Part shown: positions 3,756-44,338 of the stretch, piece after piece
Numbering within the stretch: the stretch's first letter is position 1
Layout of the letters: each line of letters begins with the position of its first letter
Origin: Euryarchaeota archaeon RBG_19FT_COMBO_56_21
GTDB taxonomy: Archaea > Thermoplasmatota > Thermoplasmata > UBA10834
NCBI GenBank assembly: GCA_001800815.1
Contig: MGWC01000001.1
Span: 1 to 52,430 of the forward strand
DNA length: 52,430 nucleotides
Direction of reading: 5' to 3'
Translations under genes and position numbers: made by a program
The notes under the pieces: model-generated
The model's database searches: none
Told to the model about the DNA's origin: nothing
What the model saw: only the letters and a program-made list of their open reading frames with translations

Positions 3756-4685
3756 ATGAGCTTCACGACCGAGTGCACCGACGTGCTGAACCACCTGATG
3801 TTCCAGAAGGCAATCATCGAAGACGACGCAGTCGCGGGTAGAGAGCAGAAGATCGAGAACTATCTCAAGATGGTGGGCGATATGCGCACGGGCGCATTGA
3901 CGCCATCGGAGGACCCCTTCGAGCAGAGCGTCGCCATGGTCTTCGAGCTGGTCGTCAACAGCCGCATGGACCCGTGGGACATCAACCTGATAGAGTTCTC
4001 AAAGATGTATCTGGCCAGGGTCCGAAAGGCAAACGAACTCAACCTCATCATCGCTGGAAAGATAGTCTACATGGCCTGGGAGATCCTGAAGCTGCAGACG
4101 GAGCAGGTCCTTCAACGCGTCGACCGACCGGAGCAGGTCGAAATGATGTTCGAAGGTTGGGACACGGATCACCTAGACCTGTTCGTGGATCCGTTCGACC
4201 TCGGCAGCGGTGAGGCTCTCCTTCACACGGATGAGCCCCCGATAGACGAGAAGGTAAGACGCAGGGGCGAGCGGCCCGTTACGCTCATAGACCTCTTGGA
4301 CGCGTTCGAGGAAGCGAAGAAGGAGGCGGACATCCGCCAAGAGCTTTCCAAGTTCATGCAGAAGTACAAGAGGCCGGATTTCGACGACAAGGCACACAAG
4401 GAGAGTCTCGAAGAGGACATCGCCCAGGTCTGGGAAAGGATACAGAAGTACGGGCAGGGCTCCGTGGCAGTCACGGACCTATACGCTGGGGGCAAGGAAG
4501 ACCGGATCAAAGTGTTCATATCAGTCCTGTTCCTCGCACAGATGGGAAAGATACAGGTGTGGCAAGAGAAGATGCCCTTCGGTGAGATCTTCCTAGAGGT
4601 CAAGGTTCCCTGGGACATCGCGCAGCTCGAAGACGCGTCTGCACTCGTGAGCGAGAAGATCGAAGAGGTCCCGGTGGTTAAGTGA
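3756..4685 (+). CDS. scpA: Segregation/condensation protein A (kleisin)
   Basis: MDPWDINL motif, C-terminal FISVLFLA..GKI.VWQE..FGEI winged helix; abuts smc. Confidence 0.93.
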   Translation: MSFTTECTDVLNHLMFQKAIIEDDAVAGREQKIENYLKMVGDMRTGALTPSEDPFEQSVAMVFELVVNSRMDPWDINLIEFSKMYLARVRKANELNLIIAGKIVYMAWEILKLQTEQVLQRVDRPEQVEMMFEGWDTDHLDLFVDPFDLGSGEALLHTDEPPIDEKVRRRGERPVTLIDLLDAFEEAKKEADIRQELSKFMQKYKRPDFDDKAHKESLEEDIAQVWERIQKYGQGSVAVTDLYAGGKEDRIKVFISVLFLAQMGKIQVWQEKMPFGEIFLEVKVPWDIAQLEDASALVSEKIEEVPVVK

Positions 4686-7833: not shown

Positions 7834-8463
7834 CTACGAATTCTTGACAAAAACGTCCTTTATAACGTCTGCGGCATCTTCGCACTTGTCAGTGGCCATC
7901 TCCAAATTCTCATAGACCTCTTTAAGCTTGATGATATCAACGGCATCGTGCTTCTTAAAGAGGTTTGCCACCGCCACGTGAGTGATGTCATCCGCAAGAT
8001 TCTCAAGCCTGTTAACTTCGATACAGTGCTTCAGTATTTCGTTCTTCTTCTTGAAATTCCTGAGGTCCTTGACCGCGTGGTTGACTTCTCCAGCCGAACT
8101 CAGGATGACCTCAGCCAATCTGACCATGTCCGGGGGAACCGTCTTGAGCTCGTAAGACCACATCCTGTGCGAGGCGGCTTCGATGAAGTCCAGGATATCA
8201 TCCAGGCGCGAGGCGAGCTTGGACAAATCGTCATGATCGATAGGAGTCACGAAGGTTTTGTTCAGAGCCTCAGCCAGCTGGTGAACGACCTCGTCTCCCT
8301 TGTGCTCAATCTCTTTGATTTTATTCCTCTTCTCAGCGACGCTGCTGAAGTCCTTGGTCATCTCGAGGAGCGCCTCAGCACCCTCGAGTACTATGTCAGC
8401 CTGCATCTCCAGCATCTCGAAGAAATGCTTTTCCTGAGGAATTATCCATTCCTTGAAACCCAT
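7834..8463 (-). CDS. DUF47/PhoU-like phosphate transport regulator
   Basis: EHKGD, FVTPIDHDD, ENLADD, LEMATDKCED motifs; directly upstream of PiT. Confidence 0.92.
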   Translation of the reverse strand: MGFKEWIIPQEKHFFEMLEMQADIVLEGAEALLEMTKDFSSVAEKRNKIKEIEHKGDEVVHQLAEALNKTFVTPIDHDDLSKLASRLDDILDFIEAASHRMWSYELKTVPPDMVRLAEVILSSAGEVNHAVKDLRNFKKKNEILKHCIEVNRLENLADDITHVAVANLFKKHDAVDIIKLKEVYENLEMATDKCEDAADVIKDVFVKNS

Positions 8464-8601
8464 CCGCTGTGCCCCCTGAAGGGGGATTACTTGTAGTGGC
8501 TATAAACCCTTGTGGACTGACAAATGGAGATGATGCCTGGCACCTCGAAATCCAGACAAGGACCACAAGGTTTTATTTGCGATTCGAACATCACTGTGGC
8601 A

Positions 8602-14814: not shown

Positions 14815-14887
14815 GGGCCCATGGTCTAGCGGTTATGACAGCGCTCTCACACAGCGCAGATCACCGGTTCAAATCCGGTTGGGCCCA
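14815..14887 (+). tRNA. tRNA-Val (anticodon CAC), CCA not encoded
   Basis: Acceptor GGGCCCA/TGGGCCC, anticodon arm GCGCT-CTCACAC-AGCGC, T arm ACCGG-TTCAAAT-CCGGT, discriminator A. Confidence 0.97.
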
Positions 14888-15071: not shown

Positions 15072-16355
15072 TCATGAGATTTCTCTCTGCTGGAGCCTCT
15101 TCCTCTTGTCTATCGTTTTCTCAGTTCTGTAACTGAGGACAGTCGCAATGATAGTCGTGCCAAGAATGACAATGAGAGTGGTGTTGAGGAACAACGCCGT
15201 CAAGTCGATGCCCTGCGGCAAATCAGGCGCGCCTACGAGCAAGGTCGTGGCTCCCGTGGCCAGTACTGCAGCTGCCAATCCTCGAGGCATGAGAGCGAAC
15301 AACGCAGACGAATCCTCCTGAGGAAGCGTGCCTATTCTGCTCGTGGCAGAGGACGTGATCCACCGAACTGCCACGATTACACACAGCATCGCGATACCGA
15401 CAATGAGCTGCAGTCCATCTATGGTTCCGAATTCGAAAAGCAAGCCCATGTAGACGAAGAAGAACGTCCGTATGAAGAAGGTTATTTCTGCGTGGAAACG
15501 CTGAATCCTGTCATCGGAACCACCTGAGAGGTACACAGAAGTGATTTGTCTTTTCACGAAACCGCGGTTCCCTATCGACAGGCCAAAAGCCAAGGCTGCA
15601 ATCGCACCCGAGCTACCGACTAGTTCAACCGCGCCTGCAGTGAGGAACAGCACTGCGATTGTCAGCATGTAGGCAAGAGGTTGCCTTTGAAGGAGCTGAA
15701 GAGCATAGAGCCAGAGCACTCCAACCCCAAAGCCCATCAGCGCACCACCCAAGAAATCGAATGTAAGATCTCCCGCGAGGTTCACGGCGTTGAACTCGCC
15801 AACTCTCACAATCGTGAGCAGGGTAATGGCGGCGAGAATGACCAAGACATCTGTGAGGGAAGATTCAATGACAAGAGTCGATTTCGTAGAGGGCCTAATC
15901 CTCAGTCTACCCGCAATGGGAATCACTATCGCGCCACTCGTTCCTCCGACTATCGCACCCAGGCTCATGGCAATGTAGATGCTCTCGCCAATCGCAACGT
16001 AGACCACGGCTGCGACTGCCATCATTGTAAGCAGAAACGTGGCGGTTGCCATGAAGAGCGAGAGCCTCATCGACTCGAACACGGCCCTTATGTCCAATGT
16101 CAAGCCTCCATCGAAAAGGATCATGACGAGCGCCACGGAGAGGAAAAGATCCCTGTAATTGTTGAATTCCTCCAGAGTCTCAGTCGTAAGAAGGTGGAGC
16201 CTACCTCCAAGAATGGCCGGTCCGAGCAGAACTCCGACAAAGACCAGCAAGAGCACGTCAGGTACCTTGTACCTCTTGAATATCAAGTTGCCAAAGAATC
16301 CGATGAACACAACCGCACCGATGGCCAGAAACGCGACTATCGTGTTGTCATCCAT
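15072..16355 (-). CDS. Cation/H+ antiporter, CPA1 (NhaP-like)
   Basis: ILFDGG, GGTSGA, ES..TD, FF..G, PRGLAAA motifs, ~12-13 TM; start MDD at 16355 inferred. Confidence 0.88.
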   Translation of the reverse strand: MDDNTIVAFLAIGAVVFIGFFGNLIFKRYKVPDVLLLVFVGVLLGPAILGGRLHLLTTETLEEFNNYRDLFLSVALVMILFDGGLTLDIRAVFESMRLSLFMATATFLLTMMAVAAVVYVAIGESIYIAMSLGAIVGGTSGAIVIPIAGRLRIRPSTKSTLVIESSLTDVLVILAAITLLTIVRVGEFNAVNLAGDLTFDFLGGALMGFGVGVLWLYALQLLQRQPLAYMLTIAVLFLTAGAVELVGSSGAIAALAFGLSIGNRGFVKRQITSVYLSGGSDDRIQRFHAEITFFIRTFFFVYMGLLFEFGTIDGLQLIVGIAMLCVIVAVRWITSSATSRIGTLPQEDSSALFALMPRGLAAAVLATGATTLLVGAPDLPQGIDLTALFLNTTLIVILGTTIIATVLSYRTEKTIDKRKRLQQREIS

Positions 16356-16422
16356 CTTCCGCACCGTTCCTTTTCAACCCAATTAGTCAAGGGCAGCTTA
16401 GGGCTGACCACGCGATGTCCTC

Positions 16423-17715
16423 CTATCCGCGCAGTCGTTCAACCACAGCATCTTGTCCTGATCTCTGTCGGGACTCCACAGGACAGGCTTCTTCTGATGT
16501 GGGAGTCCCGCTCATAGCCCTCCTGAGAAGAAACGGCGTGAAAACAGCCGTTAGAACCCCCATCAATATGATCACAGAGTAGATCTCCTTGGAAATAATC
16601 CCGATTGTCAGGCCGTACAGTCCTATGATCATGGCCACCTCCAATCTTGGTGACATTCCGATGCCTATCGAGAGGGAGTCTCGTCTTGATATTCCAAGCA
16701 GGCGCGCAGGAATGCCACAACCCGCGACCTTCGAGAGCACTGCCACGACCGTCAGCAATGCTGCGAACAGCCAGGCGATTCCCGATATCTCCCCAAGGTC
16801 AACAAGGACCCCAAGCGACACGAAGAATATCGGTGCAAAGACCATCTCGAGGACTGAGAGCTGTCTCTTGTAGCTCGATCTGAATTGACAGCGTGCAAAG
16901 CTCGTCCCGGCTACAAAGGCTCCTATAATCGCGGAAATGCCAATAGCCTCTGATACGACAGAGTATACGAAGGCAATGCACAACGCCAACAGAAACCCGC
17001 TCTCCTCTATACCTCTCTCCAGGCCTCGCTTCTGGACAGCAGCAATTCCCTTCGCGATATACTTGGAGCCGATATAGGCTCCCAGGCCGACAAACGCTGC
17101 TGAAGCGAACACAAGAAGAAACAGTTCCCAAAGGTCGATGCCTGCTCCTGTTGCTGTTCCCTTAGATATCCCGAGCACAACCATACCGAGAACATCGTCG
17201 ACCACCGCAGCTCCTATGATGATCTTGGCGGTATCGGATCCTATGACCCTCATCTCGCGAAGAACCCCGGCAGTGATTGCCACGCTCGTTGCCACAAGCG
17301 CGGCGCCAACGAAAACTGATTGGGAGAACTTGTCGTAGCCGTTGCCGGGTTCAGGAAGCATCAGTTCTGCCAGAACGAAACCGCAGACCCACGGTACGAT
17401 CACACCACCAAGTGCAATGACCATCGAGCGCTTTGTGTAGATCTGCTTGATATCACATTCGAGGCCTATCATGAACAGAAGCAAGATGGCGCCAAGATTC
17501 GCCAATTGCTCCACCAGATTTCCAGTTACTGTTCCGCCAACCGATATCAAGCCCAAAACGCTCGGTCCAATCACGATACCAACTATCAGTTGGCCGAGGA
17601 TCTTCGGCTGCCTGAACCTTGCGAATAGGAAGCTTGAAGCTATGGCCACAGAGAGTAGAAGTGACAACTGCAGCCACAGATTGCCTACTATTGCGCTCCA
17701 GATGTCCTCGAGCAT
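16423..17715 (-). CDS. Cation/H+ antiporter, CPA2 (NapA/Kef-like)
   Basis: LLF.IGLE, ATSVAI, VVDDVL, GAFVAG, PIFFVS.G, PRLEV motifs. Confidence 0.9.
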   Translation of the reverse strand: MLEDIWSAIVGNLWLQLSLLLSVAIASSFLFARFRQPKILGQLIVGIVIGPSVLGLISVGGTVTGNLVEQLANLGAILLLFMIGLECDIKQIYTKRSMVIALGGVIVPWVCGFVLAELMLPEPGNGYDKFSQSVFVGAALVATSVAITAGVLREMRVIGSDTAKIIIGAAVVDDVLGMVVLGISKGTATGAGIDLWELFLLVFASAAFVGLGAYIGSKYIAKGIAAVQKRGLERGIEESGFLLALCIAFVYSVVSEAIGISAIIGAFVAGTSFARCQFRSSYKRQLSVLEMVFAPIFFVSLGVLVDLGEISGIAWLFAALLTVVAVLSKVAGCGIPARLLGISRRDSLSIGIGMSPRLEVAMIIGLYGLTIGIISKEIYSVIILMGVLTAVFTPFLLRRAMSGTPTSEEACPVESRQRSGQDAVVERLRG

Positions 17716-17791: not shown

Positions 17792-18571
17792 TCAGCCACG
17801 CCTTTGACGTCTCATTACTTCGCTTCCGAGGAGAAGGATCTCAAAGCCGTTGAGCTCCCCAATGAGTGTGTTATGCTCGTCAATGACAGGCAGGTCTTCA
17901 AGGCCATGTTTCATCATCTTCTCCAACGCAGTCAGCAGCCTGTCGTCCTCAGTGACCGTCACGGGCTTCACCATGTATTCCTCGACCGAGAAAGGGAGGG
18001 GGATTCGCTTGGACCGCGGCTGTTGCCGCCCTTTCTCGAAAAGCGATAGTGAACCCTGGATTGCAGCCAGCATCTCGGTGAGTCCAATCATTCCGATGAG
18101 CTTTCTCTTGTCGTCGACGACGTACGCGCTCCTTGTCCTTGGGTCGGCCAACACTCTGTCAACGACATCGTGAAGGCCCATGCCCTTCGTGACGACGATT
18201 GGATTGGCCACGACAAGCCTGTAAGCGTCCCTCACGAATCTGAATGAGAGCTCGTCGGCCATCCGTTCGAACATACCAACGCTCAATTCCCTCTCCACTA
18301 GGTCGAGCACGCTCTTTCCAACTGAGGTTAGACCGAACTTCTTCCATGTCTTCCGTCCAGGTTCCAACAGAGAAACGACCTTCCTCTCCTCCAGTTCCTT
18401 CAATGCCGTGCCGACGTTCTGAATCGAGCGATCTGTGTCCCGTGCGATTTCAGAGGCGCCGAGGTACTGGTTGTGCGCGAAACATCTGAGGGTGACAAGC
18501 CTTCGATCTGACATGATTATCCATCTTACAGTGTCCTTCATGCTCTGCTCCATGGTCTCACAATTCTCCAT
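17792..18571 (-). CDS. Winged-helix regulator fused to a CBS-domain pair
   Basis: N-terminal ASEIARDTDRSIQNV..ALKEL HTH with LTSVG wing; C-terminal VVDD..KLIG and LPVIDE..LIG CBS motifs; start uncertain. Confidence 0.85.
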   Translation of the reverse strand: MENCETMEQSMKDTVRWIIMSDRRLVTLRCFAHNQYLGASEIARDTDRSIQNVGTALKELEERKVVSLLEPGRKTWKKFGLTSVGKSVLDLVERELSVGMFERMADELSFRFVRDAYRLVVANPIVVTKGMGLHDVVDRVLADPRTRSAYVVDDKRKLIGMIGLTEMLAAIQGSLSLFEKGRQQPRSKRIPLPFSVEEYMVKPVTVTEDDRLLTALEKMMKHGLEDLPVIDEHNTLIGELNGFEILLLGSEVMRRQRRG

Positions 18572-18706: not shown

Positions 18707-18730
18707 ACGACTTGCCCCGAGAGTGCTCCG

Positions 18731-19849
18731 ATGCCGTACAAGAAAAGAAAAGGAGAGAGGAAGCCAACTTTTGCAGTCCTGGGAGCAGGTCACGGAGGCT
18801 TGGCGATGGCAGGCCATCTAGCGCTTCTTGGCTTCCGCACACGGCTCTGGAACCGGTCGCGCGAAAGGACAGATCGTGTCTCCGACCGCGGAGGAATAGA
18901 GCTGGAGGGCGTGATAGAAGGTTTTGGGGAATTGGAGCTGGCCACGGACGATATTGGTGCCGCAATCGAAGGAGCGGATGTGATCATGGTGGTGGTGCCC
19001 GCAACGGGGCACAGAGACATCGCCAAGCTGTGCGCCCCGCATCTTAATCGCAACCAAGTCATAGTCCTGAATCCCGGAAGGACTTTCGGAGCGCTTGAGT
19101 TCCTTCAGGTGCTCAACAATGAGGAAGCTCCGGCCACTCCCACGTTGGCTGAGGCCCAGACTTTCATCTACGTATCTCGCCACACGGACTTCGCGCACGC
19201 GCGCATAATGCAGATCAAGAACTCCGTCCCTCTTGCGGCAATCCCCGCGCACAAGACGCCGGAAGTTCTGGACATCGTCCGAAAGGCCCTTCCCGAATTC
19301 GTAGCAGCAACAAACGTCCTCGAGACGAGCCTCGACAACATAGGAGCCATCTTCCATCCGGCTCTCACTATCCTCAATGCGGCTAGAATAGAATCTACTC
19401 ACGGCGACTTCGAGTACTATCTTGAGGGTGTCTCCCCTTCGACGGCGAGGATCGTCGAAGCTGCGGACATGGAGCGCGTTGCATTGGGGACAGCTCTTGG
19501 CGTGCACCTCCACACCGCAAGGGAATGGCTCTATCTGGCCTATTCTTCTGCTGGTAAGACGCTTTATGATGCCACCCAGGGCACCCCTGGCTACAAGGGG
19601 GTAAGAGCTCCATCGACACTGACTCACAGGTACATCCTCGAGGATGTTCCAATGAGCCTCGTGCCGATGGTCTCAGTTGGCAAGTTGCTGGGGGTGAAGA
19701 CCCCCACGCTCAACGCACTCATTCACATGGCTTCTCTTATTCACGCTCGCGATTTCTGGGCCGAGGGCAGGACTGTCCAGAAGCTAGGTCTTGCTGGGAT
19801 GTCAGTTGAGGATATCCGAATGCTGGCCGTCAGAGGAGTGTCAAAATGA
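18731..19849 (+). CDS. NAD(P)-dependent opine (octopine/nopaline) dehydrogenase family protein
   Basis: Rossmann GAGHGG, LNPGRTFG, N.GAIFHP, D.ER.A, HRY..EDVP, G..TP motifs; start ATG 18731 inferred. Confidence 0.9.
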   Translation: MPYKKRKGERKPTFAVLGAGHGGLAMAGHLALLGFRTRLWNRSRERTDRVSDRGGIELEGVIEGFGELELATDDIGAAIEGADVIMVVVPATGHRDIAKLCAPHLNRNQVIVLNPGRTFGALEFLQVLNNEEAPATPTLAEAQTFIYVSRHTDFAHARIMQIKNSVPLAAIPAHKTPEVLDIVRKALPEFVAATNVLETSLDNIGAIFHPALTILNAARIESTHGDFEYYLEGVSPSTARIVEAADMERVALGTALGVHLHTAREWLYLAYSSAGKTLYDATQGTPGYKGVRAPSTLTHRYILEDVPMSLVPMVSVGKLLGVKTPTLNALIHMASLIHARDFWAEGRTVQKLGLAGMSVEDIRMLAVRGVSK

Positions 19850-21507
19850 GAATCCTGGCAGCTTCCATAGGCAATTGCGTCCACACCGCTGGCATTCAGG
19901 CCTTCCTGGAAATAGCCCGTACTCTCGGACACGATACTGTATTCCTCGGTCCAGCGGTCTCCGTAAAGAGGCTCGCCGAAGCCATTGTCGAGCACAAGCC
20001 GGATGCTGTTGCCGTGAGTTACAGGTTGACCCCCGAAAGCGCAAAGGTGATTTTCGACGAGCTGCAATCTGAGATCACCAGGAGCCCAGACTTAAAGAAA
20101 AGCAGGAAGTTCTTCTTCGGTGGGACGCCTCCAGTAGCGGCCCTCGCCGTCAAGACAGGCATATTCGATACATGCTTCGACGGCAGCGAGCAGGAGAAAG
20201 CCGTTGTGGCACTTCTCCAAGGGACACCTCTGGTAAAGAGTGCATCCGAGTACGCCTCGGACCTTGTTACCAGGGTTCAGAGCTCTCAACCGCTGCCCCT
20301 TATTCGACATCATTTCGGGCTTCCATCGATGAAGGACACGATTGAAGGCGCCAGGAAGATCGCTGAGAGCGGCCTGTTGGATATCCTCTCGATAGCGCCG
20401 GATCAGAGCGCACAAGAATCCTTTTTCAGACCTCGGGAGATGGACTCGCGCCTCGATGGTGCCGGAGGCGTCCCTCTGAGAAGCCCCGCCGACCTCCAAG
20501 CACTATATGAGGCGACAAGAACAGGCAGCTTCCCCCTCCTCAGGTGCTATAGTGGCACAAGAGACCTCATCAGATGGGCCGAGATGATGAAGGACACCAT
20601 CAACACAGCATGGGGTGCGGTCCCTCTCACCTGGTACAGCGAGCTCGACGGCCGCTCCAAAAGAACTCTGAATGAAGCCATTGCAGAAAACCAGCAGGCC
20701 ATGAAATGGTATGCTGAGCACGGGATTCCCGTGGAGGTCAACGAATCCCATCAATGGGCTCTGAGGCGTTCAGGCGACGTCGTGGAACTCGCGACAGCAT
20801 ACCTCGCAGCGTACAACGCGAAAGCTCTCGGCGTGAGAGACTACGTTTGTCAGTTCATGTTCGACACTCCAAGAGGCATCTCGCCCGCAATGGACATCGC
20901 GAAGATGCTCGCCAAGCTCGAGCTCGTAGAGTCCATCAAGAACGGCGAGTTCAGGGTAATCAGGATGGTCAGATCTGGTCTGACCTCATTCTCCTCGTCG
21001 GCCAATGTCGCAAAGGGGCAGCTGGCTGCTTCCGTGTACGCCGCCATGACCCTGAAACCTCACATCGTCCACGTTGTGGGCTACAGTGAGGGGGATCATG
21101 TGTCCACGGCAGAAGAGGTGATCGAAAGCTGCGAGATCGCCCAGGGAGCAATCATGAAGGCTCTTCTCGGTGGGGTGAGACCGGAGACCGATCCAAAGGT
21201 CATGGTCAGAAAGGCAAACCTCATCGAGGAGACTCGGTACCTGCTTGATGCGATCAAACGCTTGAAGAGAGCCAACTCACATGATCCGCTCACATCCCCC
21301 GAGACGATAGCCGAGGCGATCAGGGAAGGATTGCTCGATGCATCGGATCTTCGCGGGAGCGGAGTGGCCCGGGGGAGAATAGTGACATCAATCGTCGATG
21401 GAGCCTATGTGGCGGTCGATTCCAACACTGGCAAGCCGATCACGGAGAAGGAGAGAATCCAGGAACTTGCAGTCTGCGAACACGACCTTGATCTCGCCGA
21501 GATTTGA
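19846..21507 (+). CDS. Cobalamin-binding protein: N-terminal B12 domain fused to a glutamate-mutase-E-like TIM barrel
   Basis: GNCVHTAG (DxHxxG variant), FLG, SY, GG B12-domain motifs; ~420-aa C-terminal alpha/beta domain; no CxxxCxxC; ATGA overlap with upstream gene. Confidence 0.75.
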   Translation: MRILAASIGNCVHTAGIQAFLEIARTLGHDTVFLGPAVSVKRLAEAIVEHKPDAVAVSYRLTPESAKVIFDELQSEITRSPDLKKSRKFFFGGTPPVAALAVKTGIFDTCFDGSEQEKAVVALLQGTPLVKSASEYASDLVTRVQSSQPLPLIRHHFGLPSMKDTIEGARKIAESGLLDILSIAPDQSAQESFFRPREMDSRLDGAGGVPLRSPADLQALYEATRTGSFPLLRCYSGTRDLIRWAEMMKDTINTAWGAVPLTWYSELDGRSKRTLNEAIAENQQAMKWYAEHGIPVEVNESHQWALRRSGDVVELATAYLAAYNAKALGVRDYVCQFMFDTPRGISPAMDIAKMLAKLELVESIKNGEFRVIRMVRSGLTSFSSSANVAKGQLAASVYAAMTLKPHIVHVVGYSEGDHVSTAEEVIESCEIAQGAIMKALLGGVRPETDPKVMVRKANLIEETRYLLDAIKRLKRANSHDPLTSPETIAEAIREGLLDASDLRGSGVARGRIVTSIVDGAYVAVDSNTGKPITEKERIQELAVCEHDLDLAEI

Positions 21508-21525
21508 TTCATTCGGTGAATGGAA

Positions 21526-22995
21526 ATGGAAGGGATCGCAGGCACATTCGGAATGAGAGACAAACACCTCGTGAGAATGATGCTGGAGAAGCTCGAACAC
21601 AGGGGACCCGACGCATCAGCAATCTATGCTGACGACGCTCTCGTTCTCGGGGCCAGGAGGTCGAGAAGAAGCCCCATCGAAAAGGCCACAGCGATTGCAC
21701 AGGAGGATGGGGTTGCTGTCGCATGCGATTCATACATCTTCAACAAAGAGCGGTTGCGAAAGACGATTGCCCCGAGCTGCGACGGGAGTGCCTCAGACGC
21801 GCAGCTCGTGCTCAAAATGTATAGGACCATAGGCGCTTCCGTCTTCCGCTACATCGATGGGGCATATGCCATAGTCATCGTTGACTGTGGCAAGACCCTT
21901 GTCGCAAGGGATACCTACGGTCTCAAACCGCTTTACTTCTCGGGGGACATGAGAAGGGGCATATACTCTTCCGAAATCAAGTCCCAGCAACTCGCAGAAG
22001 AGCGATTCATTCCCTTCCCGCCTGGCGAGATGCTTGTCTCCGGGGAGGGTTTCAGAAGAATCGTGAGGCAAGAAATCCCTTGGACCAAAGATCTCAATCC
22101 CAAGCGTCCCGCAGATAGAGTGCGTCAGCTCATAATGCAGAGTGTGTTGGGCTGTGTCGACAATTCGAGCGGATTCAACGTGTTACTCAGCGGAGGTGTC
22201 GACAGCAGCGTTATTGCTGCAGCTGCTGCTGAGACTGCATTGAGCACACAGAGTGTCTGCGTAGGGACGGAAGATAGCGAGGACCTCAAGATGGCTCGAT
22301 TGGTCGCAGATCACCTCGGGACCAGACACAAAGAGCGTGTCTATGATGTCGAAGACATGCTCAAAGTCCTCAGCGACGCAATATACTATGGGGAGACTTT
22401 CGACTACCCTCTCGTGAGAAGTTGCATCCCCAATTACATTGCTACGCATGTCTTCTCGGACAGGCACAGGATCACTCTCTGCGGCGAGGGAGGAGACGAG
22501 GTATTCGCAGGATACGACTTCCTATTTGGCGTCAAGAAGGACGAGGCGCTGAGATTGGAGAGGGTCGCCCTGCTCAGGGATGGTCACATGACCGGATTCC
22601 AGAGAGTCGATCGGATGACTGCGTCTGCCTCTCTGGATGGAAGAATGCCCATGATGAGCAATCAGGTTGTGGATTATGGTCTTCGGCTGGGTAGGAAGGC
22701 ATTGCTCGGATCCAAAGTCGAGAAGAGCAAACTTGTCCTTCGCAAAGCCTTCGCCGATCTCTTGCCGAAGCAGGTTACATGGAGAAAGAAGAGGAGGTTC
22801 AGCGATGGCGCTGGCTCCATCAGCTCTCTTGTCGGGTATTCAGAGAAGCTCATATCTGACAAGGAGTTCGAGAGAGAACGGGGACTACTGCCAAGAATCA
22901 GGACGAAGGAGGAGCTGTTGTACTACAGGGTCTTTCAGCGTCACTTCCCATCGGAGAGCGCACTAGCCTCAGTTGGATTCACGCCACGCCCATGA
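21526..22995 (+). CDS. Asparagine synthetase B-like ATP-dependent amide ligase lacking the N-terminal nucleophile Cys
   Basis: MEGIAG start, HRGPD, RD.YG.KPLY, SEIK, PP-loop LSGGVDSS, GEGGDEVFAGY, K.VLR, WRKK; GGTGA RBS at 21515 (alternative start 21520). Confidence 0.88.
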   Translation: MEGIAGTFGMRDKHLVRMMLEKLEHRGPDASAIYADDALVLGARRSRRSPIEKATAIAQEDGVAVACDSYIFNKERLRKTIAPSCDGSASDAQLVLKMYRTIGASVFRYIDGAYAIVIVDCGKTLVARDTYGLKPLYFSGDMRRGIYSSEIKSQQLAEERFIPFPPGEMLVSGEGFRRIVRQEIPWTKDLNPKRPADRVRQLIMQSVLGCVDNSSGFNVLLSGGVDSSVIAAAAAETALSTQSVCVGTEDSEDLKMARLVADHLGTRHKERVYDVEDMLKVLSDAIYYGETFDYPLVRSCIPNYIATHVFSDRHRITLCGEGGDEVFAGYDFLFGVKKDEALRLERVALLRDGHMTGFQRVDRMTASASLDGRMPMMSNQVVDYGLRLGRKALLGSKVEKSKLVLRKAFADLLPKQVTWRKKRRFSDGAGSISSLVGYSEKLISDKEFERERGLLPRIRTKEELLYYRVFQRHFPSESALASVGFTPRP

Positions 22996-23319: not shown

Positions 23320-24954
23320 TCATTTGTCGTAGAGTCGGCAGGCGACGAAATGACCGTTTCCAACATCGTCCATCTGCGGTTCCTCCACCGCTCCGAGCTT
23401 GACCGCCAATTCAAGCTTTGGTCCCTTTGTTCGTTTGATGGCGACCCGTCGCACTGCGAGCGCGATTGGGTTCTTCTGCTCCTTCATGAATTTGAGACGG
23501 GTCTCCAGCTCGGCGACCGCCTTATCGAGATTAGCCTCAGGCCCGAGCACTTTGAAAACGACGTGTCTCCCTCTGGGTTTGATCGACAGAATCATGTTGT
23601 GAACTCTGGAAGCAGGGTCCACGTCCAGCACTCTTTCCATCAACATCGCCGCTTCCTGAGCCACTTTCCTAGCTGATATCTTCCGTCGGGGCGGCTTCTT
23701 ACCTTTATCCGCGCTCCCCGCCGCCGTCCCAGGCAATGACAACTTGTCGCAGGACACGACGACCTCTCGATCTACTAAGAACATGTCAATTGCGACCACA
23801 GCGTCCAATAATGAAGACTCCTTCTTGCGTTCGGCGAAATAGGCCCCGAGCCATCTCTTCACCAAATCAACGTCTTCCCCGGACCGCAGGTCGACATAGG
23901 CTGCGAAGCCATCGGATCTGAGCCCCACGACGTGGTTCGACAGGATGTGCGTCGGGTTTGTGATCTTCGCGACTTCTAGCAGGTGGGCAACAAGGTCCCT
24001 CCCCTCCCAGCCGCACTTGTCAAAGGCTACGGAGCACCTCGGATGGAATCTGCACCCCTTCGGCGGGTCAATGGGGCTGGGGACTTCGCCTTCAATGCCC
24101 CTCCTGTCCTTCCTCTTGAGAGGGTCGGGGATGGGAATTGACGAAATGAGAGCCTTCGTGTAGGGGTGCAGAGGGTTGCCCATGAACTCGCGAGTTGGAG
24201 CCAGCTCGACTATCTTCCCCAGATACATGACTGCGATCCTATCGCTCATATGCTCTATGACGGACAGATCGTGAGAGATGAAAAGGAAGCTTAGTCCCAG
24301 TTTAGACTGGAGACGCTTGAGAAGGTTCAGAGCCTGAGCCTGAACCGACACGTCCAACGCCGAAGTAGGCTCGTCCAGAACTATGAAGTCAGGATCGAGC
24401 GCAAGTGCTCTCGCAAGCGCTATCCTTTGCTTCTGACCCCCGCTGAACTCGTGTGGCAGCCTGGAAAGATGGTCATGGGAGAGGCCCACTTGCTCGATGA
24501 GCTCGTGGATCTTCTCCCTCTTTATGAACTTCGAGTCACCGATGCCCTTGGGTGGCCCATGAATCGCAAATCCCTCTCCAATTATCCTCTCCACCGTCAT
24601 CCGCGGGTCGAGGCTGGAATATGGATCCTGGAAGACGATCTGCATCCTCTTCCTGAAGCCACGGACTGCGGACTGCGGGATCTCCGTGATATCCTTGCCC
24701 TGGAAGATGATCCTCCCACCTGTCGGCTCGGCGAGCCTCAGTATGGTGCGTCCGACCGTGGTTTTTCCGCATCCCGACTCACCGACTAGACCCAGGGTCT
24801 CACCCCTGAATACCGACAGATCTACGCCATCGACTGCGTGGACATGTCCGACCACAGTGCTGAAAACGCCCTTCTTCACCGGGAAGAGTTTCTCCAGACC
24901 AATGGTCTGGACGATTGGTTGGCTGCCGTTAGCCCGGTCTCCGCTAACGGACAT
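23320..24954 (-). CDS. Oligopeptide/dipeptide ABC transporter ATPase (OppF/DppF) with ~200-aa C-terminal insertion
   Basis: [37 protein letters not shown]...HFVAC. Confidence 0.92.
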
Positions 24955-26221
24955 TTGGGCCCTCCTTTCCAGTCCACAAATGGCATGAAACGAAGTGCCC
25001 TGGAGAGATCTCCACCCGCCGCGGCATATCCTCTCCGCAGACTTCCGTGGCCTTCTCGCATCTCTCTACGAACGCGCAGCCTTGGAACGGACGCATCAGG
25101 TTTGGCACCGTCCCTCTTATCACTGACAGCTCATCCTTTCTCTCGCCCAGTTTAGGGAATGCCGCGAGCAGTCCAGCCGTGTAAGGGTGTCTCGGGTTGG
25201 CGAATAGCTCGAAGGTCTCCGCCTCCTCCACGATCCGACCTGCGTACATCACGCATATCCGGTCGCACACCTCCGCCACGACTCCCAAGTTGTGCGTGAT
25301 CAACATCATCGAGCTGCCAGTCGTGCGCATGAGGTCTCTCAACAGGTTGAGTATCTGGGCCTGGATCGTGACATCGAGCGCGGTCGTCGGTTCGTCCGCG
25401 ATCAGAAGTGATGGGGAGCACGATAGCGCGAGCGCGATCATGACGCGTTGCTTCATGCCGCCGCTCAGCTCGTGGGGATACTGCTTCATGACATTGACCG
25501 GCGCGGCAATCCTCACCAGCTTCAGCACCTCCTCTATCTTCTTGTCGAGTACAGCTCGATCATAGATGCCCTGGTGCAAGGAGATGACCTCGCCGAGTTG
25601 ATAGGCGACCGTGAAGACTGGATCTAGGGCGGTGGCAGGGTCTTGGAATATCATGGATATGCTCTTGCCTCTGATGGATCTCATCTGGTCATCGGTTCTT
25701 GTGAGCAAATCGAACGAGAAAAGCGCAGCAGCTCTCCCGACTTTGTCGGACGCAGGCATCGTCTTGGCATTCTGTGCGAGATAGTACCTTGTGACTCCGG
25801 TCGGAACTCTGTCCGGCGGAACGATCTTATCGATCTGCGCTGGGGTCAACTTCTTGGCCTTCTTCTTGCGACCAGTGTCCCTGTAATCGTAGAGCGCGAC
25901 AAGCTTCTTCTTCTCCACCAGAGACGATCTCCTGTACCATTCCTGGGCCTCTATCTCCAGCTGCATCCTTCGCTGTCGGACATCCTGAGGCTCCATGAAG
26001 AAGATGTTGCCAGCTGTAATCTTTCCGGGGCCCGGAACGAGCCTCAATATGGAGAAGGCGGTCATGCTCTTCCCGCAGCCCGTTTCTCCAACAATCCCCA
26101 CGGATTCCTTTTCGTAGACTGTGAAATCAATGCCGTCGAGAGCAGTCACCACCCCCTCGTGCAGGAAGAATTGAGTCCGTAGCCCCACAATCTCGAGCAG
26201 GGGCTTCCTACCGGGCATCAT
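24944..26221 (-). CDS. Oligopeptide/dipeptide ABC transporter ATPase (OppD/DppD) with ~90-aa insertion
   Basis: [35 protein letters not shown]; start 26221 overlaps upstream stop. Confidence 0.92.
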
Positions 26222-27168
26222 CTCCTCAGCCCCTTCATACGCGGGTCGAGCACGTCCCTCAGACCGTCCCCTAGCAGGTTGAACCCCAGAATGGTCAGCA
26301 GCAGCACGAGTCCAGTGAAGGTCGCCATCCATGGTGCCTCCTCCAGGTACGGGATGCCCCTGTACAGCATGTAGCCCCAGCTTGGCGTCGGAGGCTGCGT
26401 GCCCACTCCAAGGAAGCTGAGGCTGCTCTCAATTGTGATCGCATCCGCGACGCCGATGGACGCCCACACGATCAGAGGAGCCAGACAGTTCGGCAGGACG
26501 TGTGTGAACATGATCCTGATATTCTTCGCGCCCAGAGCCCTGCTAGCCTCGACGAACAGCCGCTCCCGAACCGCAAGCGCCTGACCGCGCATGAGCCTCG
26601 CGAACCCGGCCCAGTAGGATATGGATATCGCCAATATGACGTTGTTCAGGCTTGGTCCTAGCGCTGCGGCGAATGCAAGTGCCAGCAGGAACGCGGGGAA
26701 TGTCCAGAACAAGTCAATCGTGCTCGCGATGATGTAATCGACTTTGCCGCCGAAATAGCCCGCCGTAAGCCCCAGCAACACCCCGATCACCAGGGAGAAA
26801 AAAACTGCCAGCGTCGCCACCAACAACGAAACTCTCGCGCCCCAGATAACCCGACTGAATACATCTCGACCTAGCTCGTCAGTCCCAAAGATGTGTCCGT
26901 CTCCCTTGGATACGTTGTACCCGAAGAACCTGAACCAGTGCGGAGGCAAAGTCTGGTCCTCCGGATGGATCTCGCTCGGGGTCGGGTCGGCAATTGGCAG
27001 GACGGGGGCAAACACGGCGAGCGCGACCATCACGACAATGACAGACAAACCAATGACGACCATCTTGTTCCTGCTGCCCCGCTGGATCATATCGGCTATG
27101 GTCTCCCTCGCGCCGCCGGCCATCTTCCAGCCGAGAAGCCTGTCGTTCAGACCCTTCCTCAGCCTCAT
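26218..27168 (-). CDS. Oligopeptide ABC permease (OppC/DppC)
   Basis: FGTDELGRD, FVEASRALGA EAA loop, LSFLG.G..PPTPSWG. Confidence 0.95.
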   Translation of the reverse strand: MRLRKGLNDRLLGWKMAGGARETIADMIQRGSRNKMVVIGLSVIVVMVALAVFAPVLPIADPTPSEIHPEDQTLPPHWFRFFGYNVSKGDGHIFGTDELGRDVFSRVIWGARVSLLVATLAVFFSLVIGVLLGLTAGYFGGKVDYIIASTIDLFWTFPAFLLALAFAAALGPSLNNVILAISISYWAGFARLMRGQALAVRERLFVEASRALGAKNIRIMFTHVLPNCLAPLIVWASIGVADAITIESSLSFLGVGTQPPTPSWGYMLYRGIPYLEEAPWMATFTGLVLLLTILGFNLLGDGLRDVLDPRMKGLRR

Positions 27169-28106
27169 CCCAGCCTCACCCTTGGGTCCACGAACGCGTA
27201 GAGTATGTCAGCAACCAGGTTGCCGAGTACGACGAACATCGCCAGTACGAGTATGCACCCCTGAACAGTCGGATAGTCGTAGTTCGTGATGGAGTTGGTC
27301 ACGAGCAGACCAAGCCCAGGCCATGAGAAGACGGTCTCGACGACGACTGCGCCCGCGACGAACCAACCGATGTCGAGGCCAATGACCGTGATCACAGGGA
27401 GCATCGCGTTCTTGAGAGCATGCTTGAATATCACTTCGCTCTCCGGGAGTCCTCTAGACCTGAGCTGAGTGATGTAGTCCTGTCTCTGCACCTCAAGCAT
27501 GCTCGATCTCATCATGCGGGTCGTGAGCGCCGCATTGCCAAGACCTAAAGTCATCGCGGGCAGGATGATGCTCTTGAAACCCCCGACCGTTCCTTCGATT
27601 GGAAGCCATCCTAAGTACACCGCGAACAGCAGCATTAGCAGGATGCCGAGCCAAAACGAGGGCATGGCGTATGCAACGAGCGTGAAGACCATCACACTCC
27701 TGTCCTTCCAGGAGTTCTGCTTCAGCGCCGAGTATACCCCAAGAGGGATGCCCAGTGAATATGAAATAGTCAAGCCGATGGCCATGAGCTCGAGTGTCTT
27801 CGGAAGCCTCTGGATGATGAGGTCGCTTACGTCGAGATTGAGTGTCTGACGACTGACCGATTGGCCGAGATCGCCCTGCGCCAGGCGGTAGAGGAATTTG
27901 CCGTACTGGACGATGAACGGCTGGTCAAACCCATACTTCTCTCTGAGCTTCTGAATATCATCGGGGGACGCGTGCGGAGGCAGGATGTTGACGATGGGAT
28001 CTCCGGGGGTCAGGTACAGCATAAGAAAGACGATGAATGTCGCAAGCAGAATTACAGGAATGGCGAGAAGAATCTTCCTGATCACGTAAGAGATTAGATC
28101 CGCCAT
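27165..28106 (-). CDS. Oligopeptide ABC permease (OppB/DppB)
   Basis: PGDP, GDLG.S, P.FWLG, HALKNA, E.VF.WPGLG, DPRV; start MADL at 28106 inferred. Confidence 0.95.
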   Translation of the reverse strand: MADLISYVIRKILLAIPVILLATFIVFLMLYLTPGDPIVNILPPHASPDDIQKLREKYGFDQPFIVQYGKFLYRLAQGDLGQSVSRQTLNLDVSDLIIQRLPKTLELMAIGLTISYSLGIPLGVYSALKQNSWKDRSVMVFTLVAYAMPSFWLGILLMLLFAVYLGWLPIEGTVGGFKSIILPAMTLGLGNAALTTRMMRSSMLEVQRQDYITQLRSRGLPESEVIFKHALKNAMLPVITVIGLDIGWFVAGAVVVETVFSWPGLGLLVTNSITNYDYPTVQGCILVLAMFVVLGNLVADILYAFVDPRVRLG

Positions 28107-28222
28107 GGATTTCTTCCCCTTACAGCCCCCATCCGCCGCCGTCCATAGATGCTTCTGCTCCGCGTGTTTTGGTCGGGTTCCGCATATGAAATGAAATGGT
28201 AAAGGGTTTTCTAGTTTTTCCA

Positions 28223-29947
28223 CTACTTCACTATGTCAACGTCCAGGATGTTAATAGGCTGCTCCTGGCCGAGCGGGTGCACATACCAGCCTGTCACATA
28301 GTTGTGTATCGCGAAGATCTGGTACCAGAATATGATCGGTGCCCAGGCCCCCTGCGTCAATAGCCTGATGTGTCCAGCTGTGGCGTTGTCAGAGAAATCC
28401 TTCTCCGTCTCCGCGTAGGTCCAGTTGGTGACATAGCCGTCGAAAACGTCGTCCATGTACCATCCGGTGTTCGAACCTCCAGCGGCCCATGTGCCGAAGT
28501 GCCAGTCGAGGATCTCCGCTCTCGGCCACGAGTACCAGAACAAGATGGCTTCCTGTTCTCCATCAGCCGCCTTGGCCCTCAGAGTTGTCTCCGCGTATTG
28601 CGCGAGATCCACATGGACTCCAACCGCCTGGAACTGGGTCTGCAGAATCTCTCCCATCGAAACGTCCTCGCCCTTGTTTGTAGTCCATAGATCCAGCGTC
28701 AGCTCAGCTCCCGCGGCATTCTCTAGCCATGCGTCGCTGTCTCTGTTGGTCCAGCCGGCCGCCGCGAACAGTGTGCTCGCCTTGGCGGGGTCATATGAAT
28801 AGTTGTATATCGCTGGAACCTTCGTCGACTCAGGCTCGATTGGCGACAGGTAGTTGACACCCTCCTCACCAATGCCGTGCCAAACCGTCTGCAGGATCTG
28901 CGTTCTGTTGATGGCGTAGCCGAACGCTTTTCTGAGGTCCGCATTCGTCCACGGAGTCTTGTTGCAGTTGAACTCTACGTGATATGTCCCCTGTCCGCGG
29001 CCCGAAATCACCGTCATCTCGGTGTTGGCCTCGTATGTCGGAACCTTGTTCGGTGGCACCTGCTGCAGGATATCGATCGCCCCGCTCTCAAAGCCGGCGA
29101 ATCTTGCTGCCTGGTCCGGTATCACCCTGTAGATGATCTTGTCGATCTTTGCGGGCCCCTTGTTTGTGTACCAGGAGGCTCCCCAGTTGTAGTCCTTGTT
29201 CTTCACAAGTGTGACATGATCGCCTGCGACCCACTCCTTGAGCTTGAACGGACCAGTCCCGATGACTTTGTGTCCGGCCGTTCCGTAGTTCTCAAGTCCG
29301 TCCGATTCAAGCGCGTCAGGACCCATCATCGAACCGTACAAGTGCGACAGGTTGAAGATCAACGCCACATCAACCCAAGTAAGGTTGAGCGTCATGTGGT
29401 AGTCATCCCTGCACCATATGCCCGCGTCCGGCCATCCGGTCTTGTTCTCGCAGCCATATATGGCCCAGAACTCGTACTGCACCCAGCTATCATCTTGGGC
29501 GTAGTAGTCGATGATCCTCCTGACCGCATCTGAGTCAAACGCCAATCCGTCATGGAACTTCACACCCTCCTTGAGCGTGATGTTGAATGTGGCGTTGTAC
29601 GGGTAACCCGTGCCTCTCATGTTCTTGAGCTCCCAAGACTCTGCAAGTCCTGGTACGTAGGCACCGGTCAGGTCCCTGGCGATCAAGGTCTCGTATATCA
29701 TGCCCGGAGGCCCATACATCGCACTCGTTTTCGCAGGGTCCATCGTCTCAACATCGGAGCTCATAGCGATAACGAGGACCTTACCCTCATCCGCATTGAA
29801 CAGACCTGCGGCCCATGCGCCGGCTACTGCGGCTATCACCAGTATGACCACGATTACGACTGCCCACAACATCTTGCTTTTCGGTCGAGCTGGCGAGCCG
29901 GCAGGTTGCGCTATCTCACTCTCTGGTTGCTTCTCAGAACTCCCCAC
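28223..29947 (-). CDS. ABC substrate-binding protein family 5 (OppA/DppA-like), N-terminal membrane anchor
   Basis: TMDP, YETL, PGLAESWE, GVKFHDG, GTGPFK, LRKAF.YAINR motifs. Confidence 0.93.
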   Translation of the reverse strand: MGSSEKQPESEIAQPAGSPARPKSKMLWAVVIVVILVIAAVAGAWAAGLFNADEGKVLVIAMSSDVETMDPAKTSAMYGPPGMIYETLIARDLTGAYVPGLAESWELKNMRGTGYPYNATFNITLKEGVKFHDGLAFDSDAVRRIIDYYAQDDSWVQYEFWAIYGCENKTGWPDAGIWCRDDYHMTLNLTWVDVALIFNLSHLYGSMMGPDALESDGLENYGTAGHKVIGTGPFKLKEWVAGDHVTLVKNKDYNWGASWYTNKGPAKIDKIIYRVIPDQAARFAGFESGAIDILQQVPPNKVPTYEANTEMTVISGRGQGTYHVEFNCNKTPWTNADLRKAFGYAINRTQILQTVWHGIGEEGVNYLSPIEPESTKVPAIYNYSYDPAKASTLFAAAGWTNRDSDAWLENAAGAELTLDLWTTNKGEDVSMGEILQTQFQAVGVHVDLAQYAETTLRAKAADGEQEAILFWYSWPRAEILDWHFGTWAAGGSNTGWYMDDVFDGYVTNWTYAETEKDFSDNATAGHIRLLTQGAWAPIIFWYQIFAIHNYVTGWYVHPLGQEQPINILDVDIVK

Positions 29948-40233: not shown

Positions 40234-40242
40234 TCAAATCAC

Positions 40243-44335: not shown

Positions 44336-44338
44336 GGT

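Follow-up and report, generated by a model that had tools for sequence, protein, structure and literature searches.

The described system closest to the gene discussed here is the glutamate mutase of Clostridium cochlearium (GlmS/GlmE, also called MutS/MutE; structures 1cb7 and 6h9e). To our knowledge, about a dozen reactions of adenosylcobalamin (AdoCbl)-dependent isomerases are known, and new ones are rare. The DNA analysed here, referred to as the window, is a stretch of 52,430 nucleotides from Euryarchaeota archaeon RBG_19FT_COMBO_56_21 (contig MGWC01000001.1, positions 1 to 52,430), and it carries a gene, called the mutase below, whose single product combines a B12-binding domain with a barrel like that of GlmE. 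The mutase shares with glutamate mutase the B12-binding fold, the barrel, the C-terminal subdomain and the strand order, as well as the His ligand, the SxL and GG fingerprints and the Glu that contacts the adenosyl ribose, and some of its relatives are fused to MutL. It differs in being a single chain with an N-terminal S domain, in having a Cys in the cobalt-ligand loop and in its remodelled substrate residues; in the mutase family, moreover, there is no methylaspartase neighbour, and an obligate opine dehydrogenase (ODH) partner and stress riboswitches are found instead. The aminomutases KamDE and OraSE, which depend on pyridoxal 5'-phosphate (PLP) as well as on AdoCbl, have the AdoCbl isomerase barrel too, and OraE also holds barrel and B12-binding domain in one chain. 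However, the domain order of OraE is the reverse of that of the mutase, the mutase lacks the conserved Lys of the B12-binding domain that would bind PLP, and the sequence signal of its barrel points to GlmE and not to KamD or OraE.

The features of the mutase gene are as follows.
19846..21507, plus strand: mutase gene, an open reading frame (ORF) of 553 amino acids (aa) with an ATG start, encoding a single-chain B12-binding and GlmE-like protein (AlphaFold2 model)
19849..20181, plus strand: B12-binding Rossmann domain, residues 2-112 (Pfam PF02310, with the same span in a whole-genome scan)
19876..19893, plus strand: CxHxxG loop, C11 V H13 T A G16, in place of DxHxxG
20242..21465, plus strand: GlmE-like TIM barrel and C-terminal helical/beta subdomain, approximately residues 133-540 (VIA-align, hhalign)
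21088..21090, plus strand: codon of E415, aligned with GlmE Glu330 (mapped by profile alignment)

An AlphaFold2 model of the mutase, built on a 25-sequence alignment, has a mean pLDDT of 87.6 and a pTM of 0.75, and its best Foldseek matches are to glutamate mutase E (6h9e_B and 1cb7_B, E 1.4e-16), followed by OraE, KamD, methylmalonyl-CoA mutase (MCM) and HCM. VIA-align placed model residues 133-537 on residues 41-443 of 1cb7_B with a Z score of 31.2 and a root-mean-square deviation of 3.0 over 375 residues. The other Z scores were 29.4 for KamD (8t0v_A), 26.7 for OraE (3kow_B), about 20 for MCM and about 18 for ThiC, while generic barrels (DHPS, GcpE) reached about 16, or about half the value for GlmE. 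Comparisons of the HHpred and AlphaFold kind, proposed in the original prediction made from the DNA letters alone, therefore rank GlmE first and KamD, OraE and MCM next; neither a methyltransferase fold nor another non-mutase fold was seen, the next-best matches being other AdoCbl isomerases. The profiles agree with the model. A profile of the mutase family (72 sequences) aligned by hhalign with a profile of 22 GlmE sequences from genomes at 98.2% probability in local mode (E 4e-14) and 99.3% in global mode (E 1e-19), spanning mutase residues 99-548 and GlmE residues 12-460 over 423-439 columns. Relatives of the mutase score 17-27.5 bits against the Pfam profile Met_asp_mut_E (PF06368; cut-off 26.6), the highest value being that of family member P0137 (27.5 bits, profile positions 21-383). 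Against PDB sequences, phmmer and hmmsearch runs of the mutase, its alignment and P0137 retrieved B12-binding domains and ATP-grasp proteins but no GlmE. It had been proposed that several peptides follow the order and spacing of GlmE barrel strands, and the profile alignment bears this out, with RHHFG corresponding to GlmE 64-68, LRCYSGT to 147-152 and VEVNE to 209-214. These are numbers of 6h9e_B, which the GlmE reference sequence (locus L084) shares because it aligns 1:1 and without gaps to that chain. The residues beyond the B12-binding domain are thus homologous to the glutamate mutase E subunit.

The N-terminal part of the protein is a B12-binding domain. PF02310 is the sole Pfam match of the mutase (residues 2-112, E 7.8e-14, 52 bits, cut-off 32.1), NCBIfam gave only sub-threshold matches to the B12-binding domain (OraE, KamE, corrinoid proteins, MutS), and residues 1-128 align with the corrinoid proteins 4jgi, 7xcn and 1y80 at VIA-align Z scores of about 16. 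The reading frame itself is as first described (19846..21507, plus strand, 553 aa), and so is its ligand loop GNCVHTAG, which is encoded at 19870-19893 by ggc aat tgc gtc cac acc gct ggc (G9 N C11 V H13 T A G16). In HMMER alignments, C11 and H13 take the places of the Asp and the His, respectively, of DxHxxG, the aligned partners being GEDEHSVG in OraE (3kow) and EGDLHDIG in 4jgi, in keeping with the view that a Cys occupies the usual position of the Asp. The other peptides singled out earlier can likewise be located in the translation, namely RHHFGLPSMKDTIEGARKIAESGLLDILSIAPD at residues 154-186, FPLLRCYSGT at 229-238, WYAEHGIPVEVNE at 288-300, ESH at 300-302 and HVVG..E.DH, in full HVVGYSEGDH, at 409-418. 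As was also noted, the radical S-adenosylmethionine (SAM) motif CxxxCxxC is lacking, the only Cys residues being at 11, 110, 234, 335, 429 and 544. With neither this motif nor a Radical_SAM Pfam match, the mutase shows no features of the class B radical SAM enzymes, of which OxsB, TokK and TsrM match the model in Foldseek only at a low level, by way of the B12-binding domain.

C11 and H13 are invariant in the 25-sequence alignment, as are the other B12 fingerprints, HxxG, S58..L61 and G92 G93. In the wider family, C-x-H occupies the aligned positions in 202 of 234 sequences; the other 32 comprise 17 paralogs with the canonical DxHxxG, ten N-terminally short gene calls and five sequences without motif or domain (P0139, P0147, P0168, P0188, P0230). 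Because of this invariance and the C-x-H count, Cys11 is a fixed trait of a clade, within a superfamily that also holds the Asp form, and not a sequencing accident. The DxHxxG paralogs have the same architecture as the CxHxxG proteins and share with them the near-invariant barrel residues R154, H156, Q190, R233, Y235, D268 and R270, and further E297, D311, K353, R376, H409 and E415. These paralogs (595-636 aa, e.g. P0159, P0204) differ in the canonical loop Asp, in a longer linker and in having no Cys at positions 234 and 429. Cys11, Cys234 and Cys429 (codons 19876-19878, 20545-20547 and 21130-21132) occur together in about 180 of the 202 CxHxxG sequences, and all three positions are non-Cys in the 17 DxHxxG paralogs. 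An Fe-S or metal site made of these three residues was considered and rejected, as each is replaceable in some members and no cluster motif is present.

The active site was mapped onto GlmE by a remote profile alignment (17% identity), not by superposed coordinates, with the following correspondences.
GlmE Arg66: mutase H156 (of RHH)
GlmE Arg100: mutase Q190
GlmE Arg149: mutase Y235 (R233 on the same strand aligns with Gln147)
GlmE Glu171: mutase G257
GlmE Tyr181: mutase L267
GlmE Lys326: mutase V411
GlmE Glu330: mutase E415 (Glu in 230 of 234 family sequences)

Arg66, Arg100, Arg149 and Glu171, which we take to be the glutamate-binding residues of GlmE, are invariant in seven true GlmE sequences, and the residues that replace them in the mutase are themselves near-invariant in its family. 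The expectation that the putative substrate residues would differ from those of GlmE is therefore correct, the set H156/Q190/Y235/G257 standing for Arg66/Arg100/Arg149/Glu171. Glu330 of glutamate mutase, like MCM Glu370 and Glu338 of ornithine-4,5-aminomutase (OAM), stabilises the dissociated adenosyl radical pair (PMC4413051). As the Glu that handles the cofactor is kept and the glutamate-binding set is replaced, the mutase is, judging from its residues, not a glutamate mutase. About 40 barrel residues are invariant in the 25-sequence alignment. Conserved Arg residues in the site (154, 212, 233, 270, 273, 307, 376) and conserved acidic residues (186, 268, 297, 311, 350) would fit a poly-carboxylate amine as substrate. 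The fold of the model, the profile homology and the residue replacements together support the earlier proposal of a GlmS-GlmE (sigma-epsilon) fusion with a substrate other than glutamate.

The family is large. Among 8000 scored candidates, 7507 match the mutase at E <= 0.001, and at the same threshold there are 689 cluster representatives; species-representative genomes contain at least 598 mutase loci. The best 120 homologs are 54-96% identical over the full length, and bacterial and archaeal mutases share at least 50% identity. The names given to family members in the sources are limited to 'cobalamin B12-binding domain-containing protein', 'methionine synthase' and 'MCM cobalamin-binding subunit'. 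The hosts are anaerobic, both among archaea (Thermoplasmata, Thorarchaeota, Methanofastidiosa, Thermococci) and among bacteria (Bacteroidales, Clostridia, Aminicenantes, Omnitrophota, others), with Thermoanaerobacter thermocopriae and Caldanaerobacter subterraneus as cultured carriers. The distribution is patchy: the mutase is present in 8 of 151 genomes of the window's class, its own genome included, in four of seven other genomes of its genus, and in 2 of 151 Bacteroidota genomes (query P0204), where both matches are of the CxHxxG and none of the DxHxxG type.

Several natural fusions provide Rosetta-stone leads for the pathway and for a reactivase. P0137 (863 aa) joins the mutase to an ATP-grasp ligase, P0151 and P0155 (1226 and 1266 aa) and P0168 (826 aa) join distant mutase relatives to MutL/GlmL, the protein found in company with glutamate mutase, and P0136 (732 aa) joins it to a Peptidase_M15_3-like domain (a weak match); P0151 and P0155 carry CxHxxG, and P0168 has no detectable B12-binding domain. 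Two long ODH-mutase frames (L040, 961 aa; L066, 840 aa), in which only the C-terminal approximately 540 residues match the mutase, were discarded as artefacts of open frames in GC-rich DNA.

The mutase very probably acts in one pathway with the ODH encoded next to it.
18728..19849, plus strand: opine dehydrogenase, predicted to be of the mODH type (Pfam Octopine_DH, 5.6e-48)

The stop codon of the ODH overlaps the start codon of the mutase in the sequence ATGA (19846-19849); the longest ORF begins at 18602, although homologs favour the Met at 18728. Gene context was taken from 80 mutase loci, and in 77 of these an ODH adjoins the mutase on the same strand, directly upstream in 73 and directly downstream in four. 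In each of the three loci without an ODH the mutase starts no more than 175 bases from where the available DNA stops, which leaves no upstream DNA. A complex prediction for mutase and ODH scored 0.00, was run without controls and bears neither way on binding. The ODH matches the Arthrobacter N-(1-D-carboxyethyl)-L-norvaline dehydrogenase (CENDH/ArODH, 1bg6) over its full length (E 6e-82, approximately 40% identity). For the recently described mODH subclass, which comprises metagenomic opine dehydrogenases, it has been reported that the enzymes prefer L-Asp or L-Glu with pyruvate and mostly use NADPH, that Arg at ArODH position 111 and Gly at position 198 set the acidic preference, as seen in a double-mutant swap, that Arg at position 35 marks NADPH use, and that the products in vitro are N-(1-carboxyethyl)-Asp/Glu (PMC10787698). 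All of these positions are kept in the partner ODHs: R118 (ArODH 111) is Arg in 63 of 63 sequences, G206 (198) is Gly in 61 of 63 and R43 (35) is Arg in 63 of 63, while the catalytic residues H210 and D306 are found in 63 and 62 of the 63, respectively, and Trp267 is also conserved. The partner ODH is thus assigned to the mODH subclass by its diagnostic positions, not by direct comparison with mODH sequences, and what sets it apart from mODH/ArODH is its fixed place beside a B12 mutase. PMC10787698 gives no physiological role, gene context, B12, operon or osmotic setting for mODH.

A third enzyme is encoded directly downstream of the mutase.
21520..22995 (likely start 21526), plus strand: putative AsnB-like adenylating ligase without the N-terminal Cys nucleophile (Pfam Asn_synthase 2.1e-47, GATase_7)

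Its N-terminus, MEMEGIAG, has a Glu where AsnB has the Cys nucleophile (MCG...). For this reason it is unlikely to be a glutamine-dependent asparagine synthetase, as an automatic annotation would call it; it scores 329 bits against NF006949, for which the cut-off is 499, and 3.6e-40, also below the cut-off, against TIGR03104. The PDB matches are 1ct9 (AsnB, E 4e-52), 1jgt (beta-lactam synthetase, 3e-23) and 1q15 (CarA, 4e-13). An AsnB-like gene is found in 37 of the 80 loci. Among 31 linked proteins, that of the window included, the Cys position is taken by A, S, E, Q, P or F in 25 cases, most often by Ala or Ser, and by Cys in four, while two are unclear. In two loci (L023, L037) the place of this ligase is taken by a D-Ala-D-Ala-ligase-like ATP-grasp gene. 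Since unrelated ATP-dependent amide-forming enzymes occupy one position, a carboxylate of the pathway would be amidated or ligated. Beta-lactam synthetase and CarA are AsnB homologs that likewise lack the glutaminase Cys, and they adenylate the carboxylate of a secondary amine of the N-(2-carboxyethyl) type; however, the window's protein is much closer to AsnB and nothing points to lactam formation.

Adenosylcobalamin as the cofactor is indicated by gene context. A gene for a CobA/BtuR-type ATP:corrinoid adenosyltransferase directly adjoins the mutase-ODH pair in three loci (L036, L046, L047), and the genome of the window encodes one CobA-type corrinoid adenosyltransferase; in this genome, which is 84.6% complete, neither MCM nor canonical GlmE (PF06368) was found. 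A further B12-binding domain of the same genome lies shortly after the end of the window (contig C1, 52703-53041), in an open frame of 579 aa; contig C10 encodes two short B12-domain proteins, and contig C21 gives a weak match.

The expression of the operon appears to be tied to ionic stress in a number of bacteria. The Rfam scans covered the window and all 80 loci. In seven bacterial loci (L023, L037, L041, L043, L051, L061, L071) they placed a full-length cyclic di-AMP (c-di-AMP) riboswitch directly upstream of the operon, at 101-118 bits against a gathering score of 38, for example at 3659-3790 of L051, where a promoter-like site, the aptamer, a terminator-like hairpin and the start codon follow in this order. 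A Desantisbacteria locus (L017) has two nhaA-I motifs, at 3766-3819 and 8459-8511, one before the ODH-mutase unit and the other before the AsnB-like gene, which is transcribed separately. No other riboswitch class, cobalamin riboswitches included, was found by these scans in the 80 loci or the window, the remaining matches being tRNAs only. It is known that c-di-AMP riboswitches control osmotic-shock genes, and ablA and eam, which encode aminomutases that produce beta-amino-acid osmolytes, are regulated by Na+ riboswitches, to which a c-di-AMP riboswitch is in some cases joined in tandem (PMC9337991). The nhaA-I RNAs sense Li+, and rare variants sense Na+ (PMC9646797). The association of these riboswitches with an ODH-mutase operon appears to be undescribed: in the full texts searched, which leave out most subscription journals, we found nothing that links opine dehydrogenases to cobalamin or to c-di-AMP or nhaA-I riboswitches, nor any publication on the mutase family or on 'CxHxxG'. 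Genes of ion homeostasis accompany the pair as well. In L017 a CBS-pair gene follows the mutase, and a co-oriented Na_H_Exchanger gene comes next, both of them within the operon; L043 has a CitMHS-family transporter and a CBS pair, with the CBS-pair gene inside the operon; and MscS channel genes and a PF00324 permease of about 740 aa lie near the pair in six loci each.

In the window itself, the following genes lie upstream of the operon.
17792..18571, minus strand: candidate regulator with a winged helix (HVO_A0114) and two CBS domains, divergent from the operon (Pfam)
15072-16364 and 16423-17715, minus strand: two Na+/H+ exchanger genes near the regulator (Pfam Na_H_Exchanger)

The regulator cluster also stands beside the operon in three related Thermoplasmata loci (L002, L007, L026), and its product is a candidate for a regulator that senses a ligand or ionic strength. 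A tRNA gene (14815-14887, plus strand, Rfam 66.6 bits) lies between an aIF-2B-like gene and the exchangers. A complete Opp/Dpp-type ABC transporter (23320-29947, minus strand), made up of two ATPases with oligo_HPY tails, two permeases and an SBP_bac_5 binding protein, is convergent with the operon; transporters of this family carry opines in other bacteria. Further away, the region 38441-52428 (minus strand) holds a geranylgeranyl-reductase-like gene, a polyprenyl synthase gene and an 11-subunit-type complex-I/Mrp-like cluster with three Proton_antipo_M genes, NuoH, NuoD, NuoC and a ferredoxin-like gene, and the window otherwise contains ordinary archaeal chromosome content (SMC/ScpB, Nop56/58, the exosome subunit Rrp4, ThiF/ThiI).

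Taken as a whole, these observations are in our judgement best explained, with somewhat better than even confidence, by an AdoCbl-type 'opine mutase' in a pathway that is induced by osmotic stress and leads to a solute. The parts of this explanation differ in strength. That the protein is an AdoCbl-type radical mutase acting on a substrate other than glutamate is probable. The enzyme would be a single-chain isomerase of the base-off/His-on type, with a GlmS-like B12-binding domain fused ahead of a GlmE-like barrel, in which His13 would ligate cobalt from below, Cys11 would stand in for the Asp that hydrogen-bonds the cobalt-ligating His, and Glu415 would hold the adenosyl ribose, the part played by Glu330 in glutamate mutase. 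Homolysis of the Co-C bond would give the adenosyl radical, which would start a 1,2-rearrangement in the barrel. The substrate would most likely be an opine-type amino-polycarboxylate that is made or used by the translationally coupled, NADPH-dependent ODH. That it is specifically N-(1-carboxyethyl)-Asp/Glu, which the ODH could form by condensing L-Asp or L-Glu with pyruvate, is a suggestion we make tentatively and would not be surprised to see fail. There is a direct parallel in known chemistry: the 1-carboxyethyl group of an opine derived from pyruvate is the same CH3-CH(COO-) unit that loses a hydrogen to glutamate mutase in 3-methylaspartate, and a 1,2-shift of this unit would yield the 2-carboxyethyl isomer. 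The ligase, a Cys-less AsnB homolog here and an ATP-grasp enzyme elsewhere, might then amidate or ligate a carboxylate at the expense of ATP, so that reductive condensation, radical rearrangement and ATP-dependent amidation or ligation would follow each other in this order. A role in osmotic stress or as a source of solute is, by a slight margin, what we favour; the operon would then be turned on under salt or osmotic stress and its product would be a compatible solute.

A more specific scheme can be envisaged, which we regard as unlikely in its entirety, in which the mutase would be the first AdoCbl-type enzyme to act on a secondary-amine (imino-diacid) substrate. From the ODH's product, N-(1-carboxyethyl)-L-aspartate or -glutamate, it would take a hydrogen of the methyl group, just as glutamate mutase does with 3-methylaspartate, and would shift the neighbouring group to give the N-(2-carboxyethyl) isomer, of the beta-alanine type, with no need for PLP, and the Cys-less AsnB or the ATP-grasp ligase would amidate the product or cyclise it in the manner of beta-lactam synthetase. 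The triad Cys11-His13-Co, co-varying with Cys234 and Cys429, would tune or redox-gate the cobalt ligand in a new way.

A number of observations weigh against the opine mutase and its proposed pathway. With small alignments (25 against 7 sequences) hhalign gave a probability of only 1.9%, a result superseded by the deeper alignments, and the mutase itself stays below the PF06368 threshold. KamD and OraE, both PLP-dependent, come near to GlmE in Z score, and the remoteness of the residue mapping and the indirect assignment of the ODH to the mODH subclass have been mentioned above. We know of no precedent for the exchange of Asp for Cys in the cobalt-ligand loop. In glutamate mutase, mutation of the loop Asp costs much activity, so that the chemistry may differ here. 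No MutL was found in the genome of the window at its 84.6% completeness. The AsnB-like gene is absent from 43 of the 80 loci, riboswitches are present in just 8 of the 80, none is to be seen in the archaeal window, and its regulator and exchanger neighbours are circumstantial. Furthermore, c-di-AMP riboswitches control cell-wall genes too. For one characterised enzyme, mODH-582, the KM for L-Asp is 24.8 mM and the kcat is 0.9 per s (PMC10787698). Because this KM is high, Asp may not be the physiological substrate of the ODH, or the ODH may work at the high Asp/Glu concentrations of stressed cells.

Among the alternatives, the one that fares best, though we consider it improbable, is a catabolic or fermentative module, which would degrade an opine-like compound or an amino acid taken up from outside, or in which the ODH would act as a sink for NAD(P)H, in the way known from the anaerobiosis of invertebrates. 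The hosts are anaerobic amino-acid fermenters, the spread of the mutase within its class and in Bacteroidota is of the accessory kind, opine dehydrogenases are generally reversible, and Lrp/AsnC and YheO-type regulators, permeases and an Opp-type ABC transporter are found nearby. However, no lyase, aminotransferase or CoA-transferase is conserved beside the pair in the 80 loci, ATP-consuming ligases in the operon suit synthesis better than breakdown, and c-di-AMP and nhaA-I riboswitches, like genes of ion homeostasis, typically go with stress and solute genes (PMC9337991).

It is also conceivable, at a rather low probability, that the protein makes no radical use of the cobalamin, or no use of it whatever, be it in corrinoid-dependent methyl or group transfer, in B12 or redox sensing, where Cys11, perhaps with C234 and C429, would bind cobalt or another metal, or in a protein with a non-catalytic barrel. 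The Asp of the ligand triad is missing, the B12-binding domain resembles corrinoid proteins of methyltransferases (4jgi, MttC, 1y80), and ligation of cobalt by Cys is known from BtuM (PMC6072759) and from MMADHC complexes (bioRxiv 10.1101/2023.07.25.550549, PMC12501144). The co-occurrence of the three Cys residues in the CxHxxG clade and their absence from the 17 DxHxxG paralogs also speak for such a reading, yet C234 and C429 are each dispensable in some members. The barrel is specifically that of an AdoCbl isomerase, with the Glu for the adenosyl ribose kept, its roughly 40 invariant residues argue for catalysis, and both the fusions to MutL and the adenosyltransferase genes next door speak for AdoCbl. 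Because the DxHxxG paralogs retain the same barrel residues, the Cys is better seen as a variation on one chemistry.

We assign a small probability to an aminomutase that depends on both PLP and AdoCbl, of the lysine-5,6 or ornithine-4,5 type, whose shifted amino acid would then be coupled to pyruvate by the ODH. KamD and OraE are nearly tied with GlmE in the structural comparison, OraE is the best sequence match of the mutase's B12-binding domain, and the aminomutases ablA and eam make osmolyte precursors under the same types of riboswitch (PMC9337991). However, no Lys is invariant or nearly invariant in mutase residues 1-130 that could serve PLP. Lysine-5,6-aminomutase and OAM carry their PLP-binding Lys in the Rossmann/B12-binding domain. 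In addition, hhalign and Pfam tie the barrel, C-terminal subdomain included, to GlmE, and the NCBIfam matches to OraE and Lys_5_6_beta cover the B12-binding domain only and fall far below the cut-offs.

A genuine glutamate mutase that converts glutamate to 3-methylaspartate and is merely fused is very improbable, since, although GlmE is the best structural and profile match and some family members touch Met_asp_mut_E (such as P0137, just above the cut-off), all four substrate-binding residues are replaced by near-invariant others, no methylaspartase or MutL stands beside the mutase as at true GlmE loci, and the obligate ODH pairing speaks against it. At the true GlmE loci (L084-L095) the flanking ORFs are about 415 and 390 aa long, and we take these, which were not domain-scanned, to be methylaspartase and MutL. 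Canonical GlmE was found in 0 of 40 genomes of the class of genome G001 and in 76 of 301 genomes of its phylum.

An opine-mutase pathway would resemble the known osmolyte pathways of AblA/AblB (N-epsilon-acetyl-beta-lysine), Eam (beta-glutamate) and Ngg/AsnO (N-acetylglutaminylglutamine amide, NAGGN), in which, as proposed here, a common amino acid is rearranged and then acylated or amidated; AsnO is a homolog of AsnB. The mutases AblA and Eam, however, are radical-SAM and not B12 enzymes, and no ODH takes part in any of these pathways. What emerges is a large and strongly conserved family that has the fold of glutamate mutase with a fully remodelled substrate site, and a Cys at the one position of the cobalt loop that has been considered fixed. 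Within the AdoCbl isomerase superfamily its architecture, ligand-loop residue, substrate site and physiological setting are new. The obligate partner supplies a concrete substrate hypothesis, because its subclass makes N-(1-carboxyethyl)-Asp/Glu in vitro, and the pairing in turn gives a physiological context to 'orphan' opine dehydrogenases. Judging by the c-di-AMP and nhaA-I riboswitches and the neighbouring genes of ion homeostasis, an osmolyte pathway may have gone unrecognised in thermophilic Firmicutes, Bacteroidales, Thermoplasmata, Asgard archaea and others, and since there are cultured carriers such as C. subterraneus and T. thermocopriae, the question is directly testable. If the opine-mutase scheme is true, it would mean a new class of compatible solutes in anaerobic bacteria and archaea under salt stress.

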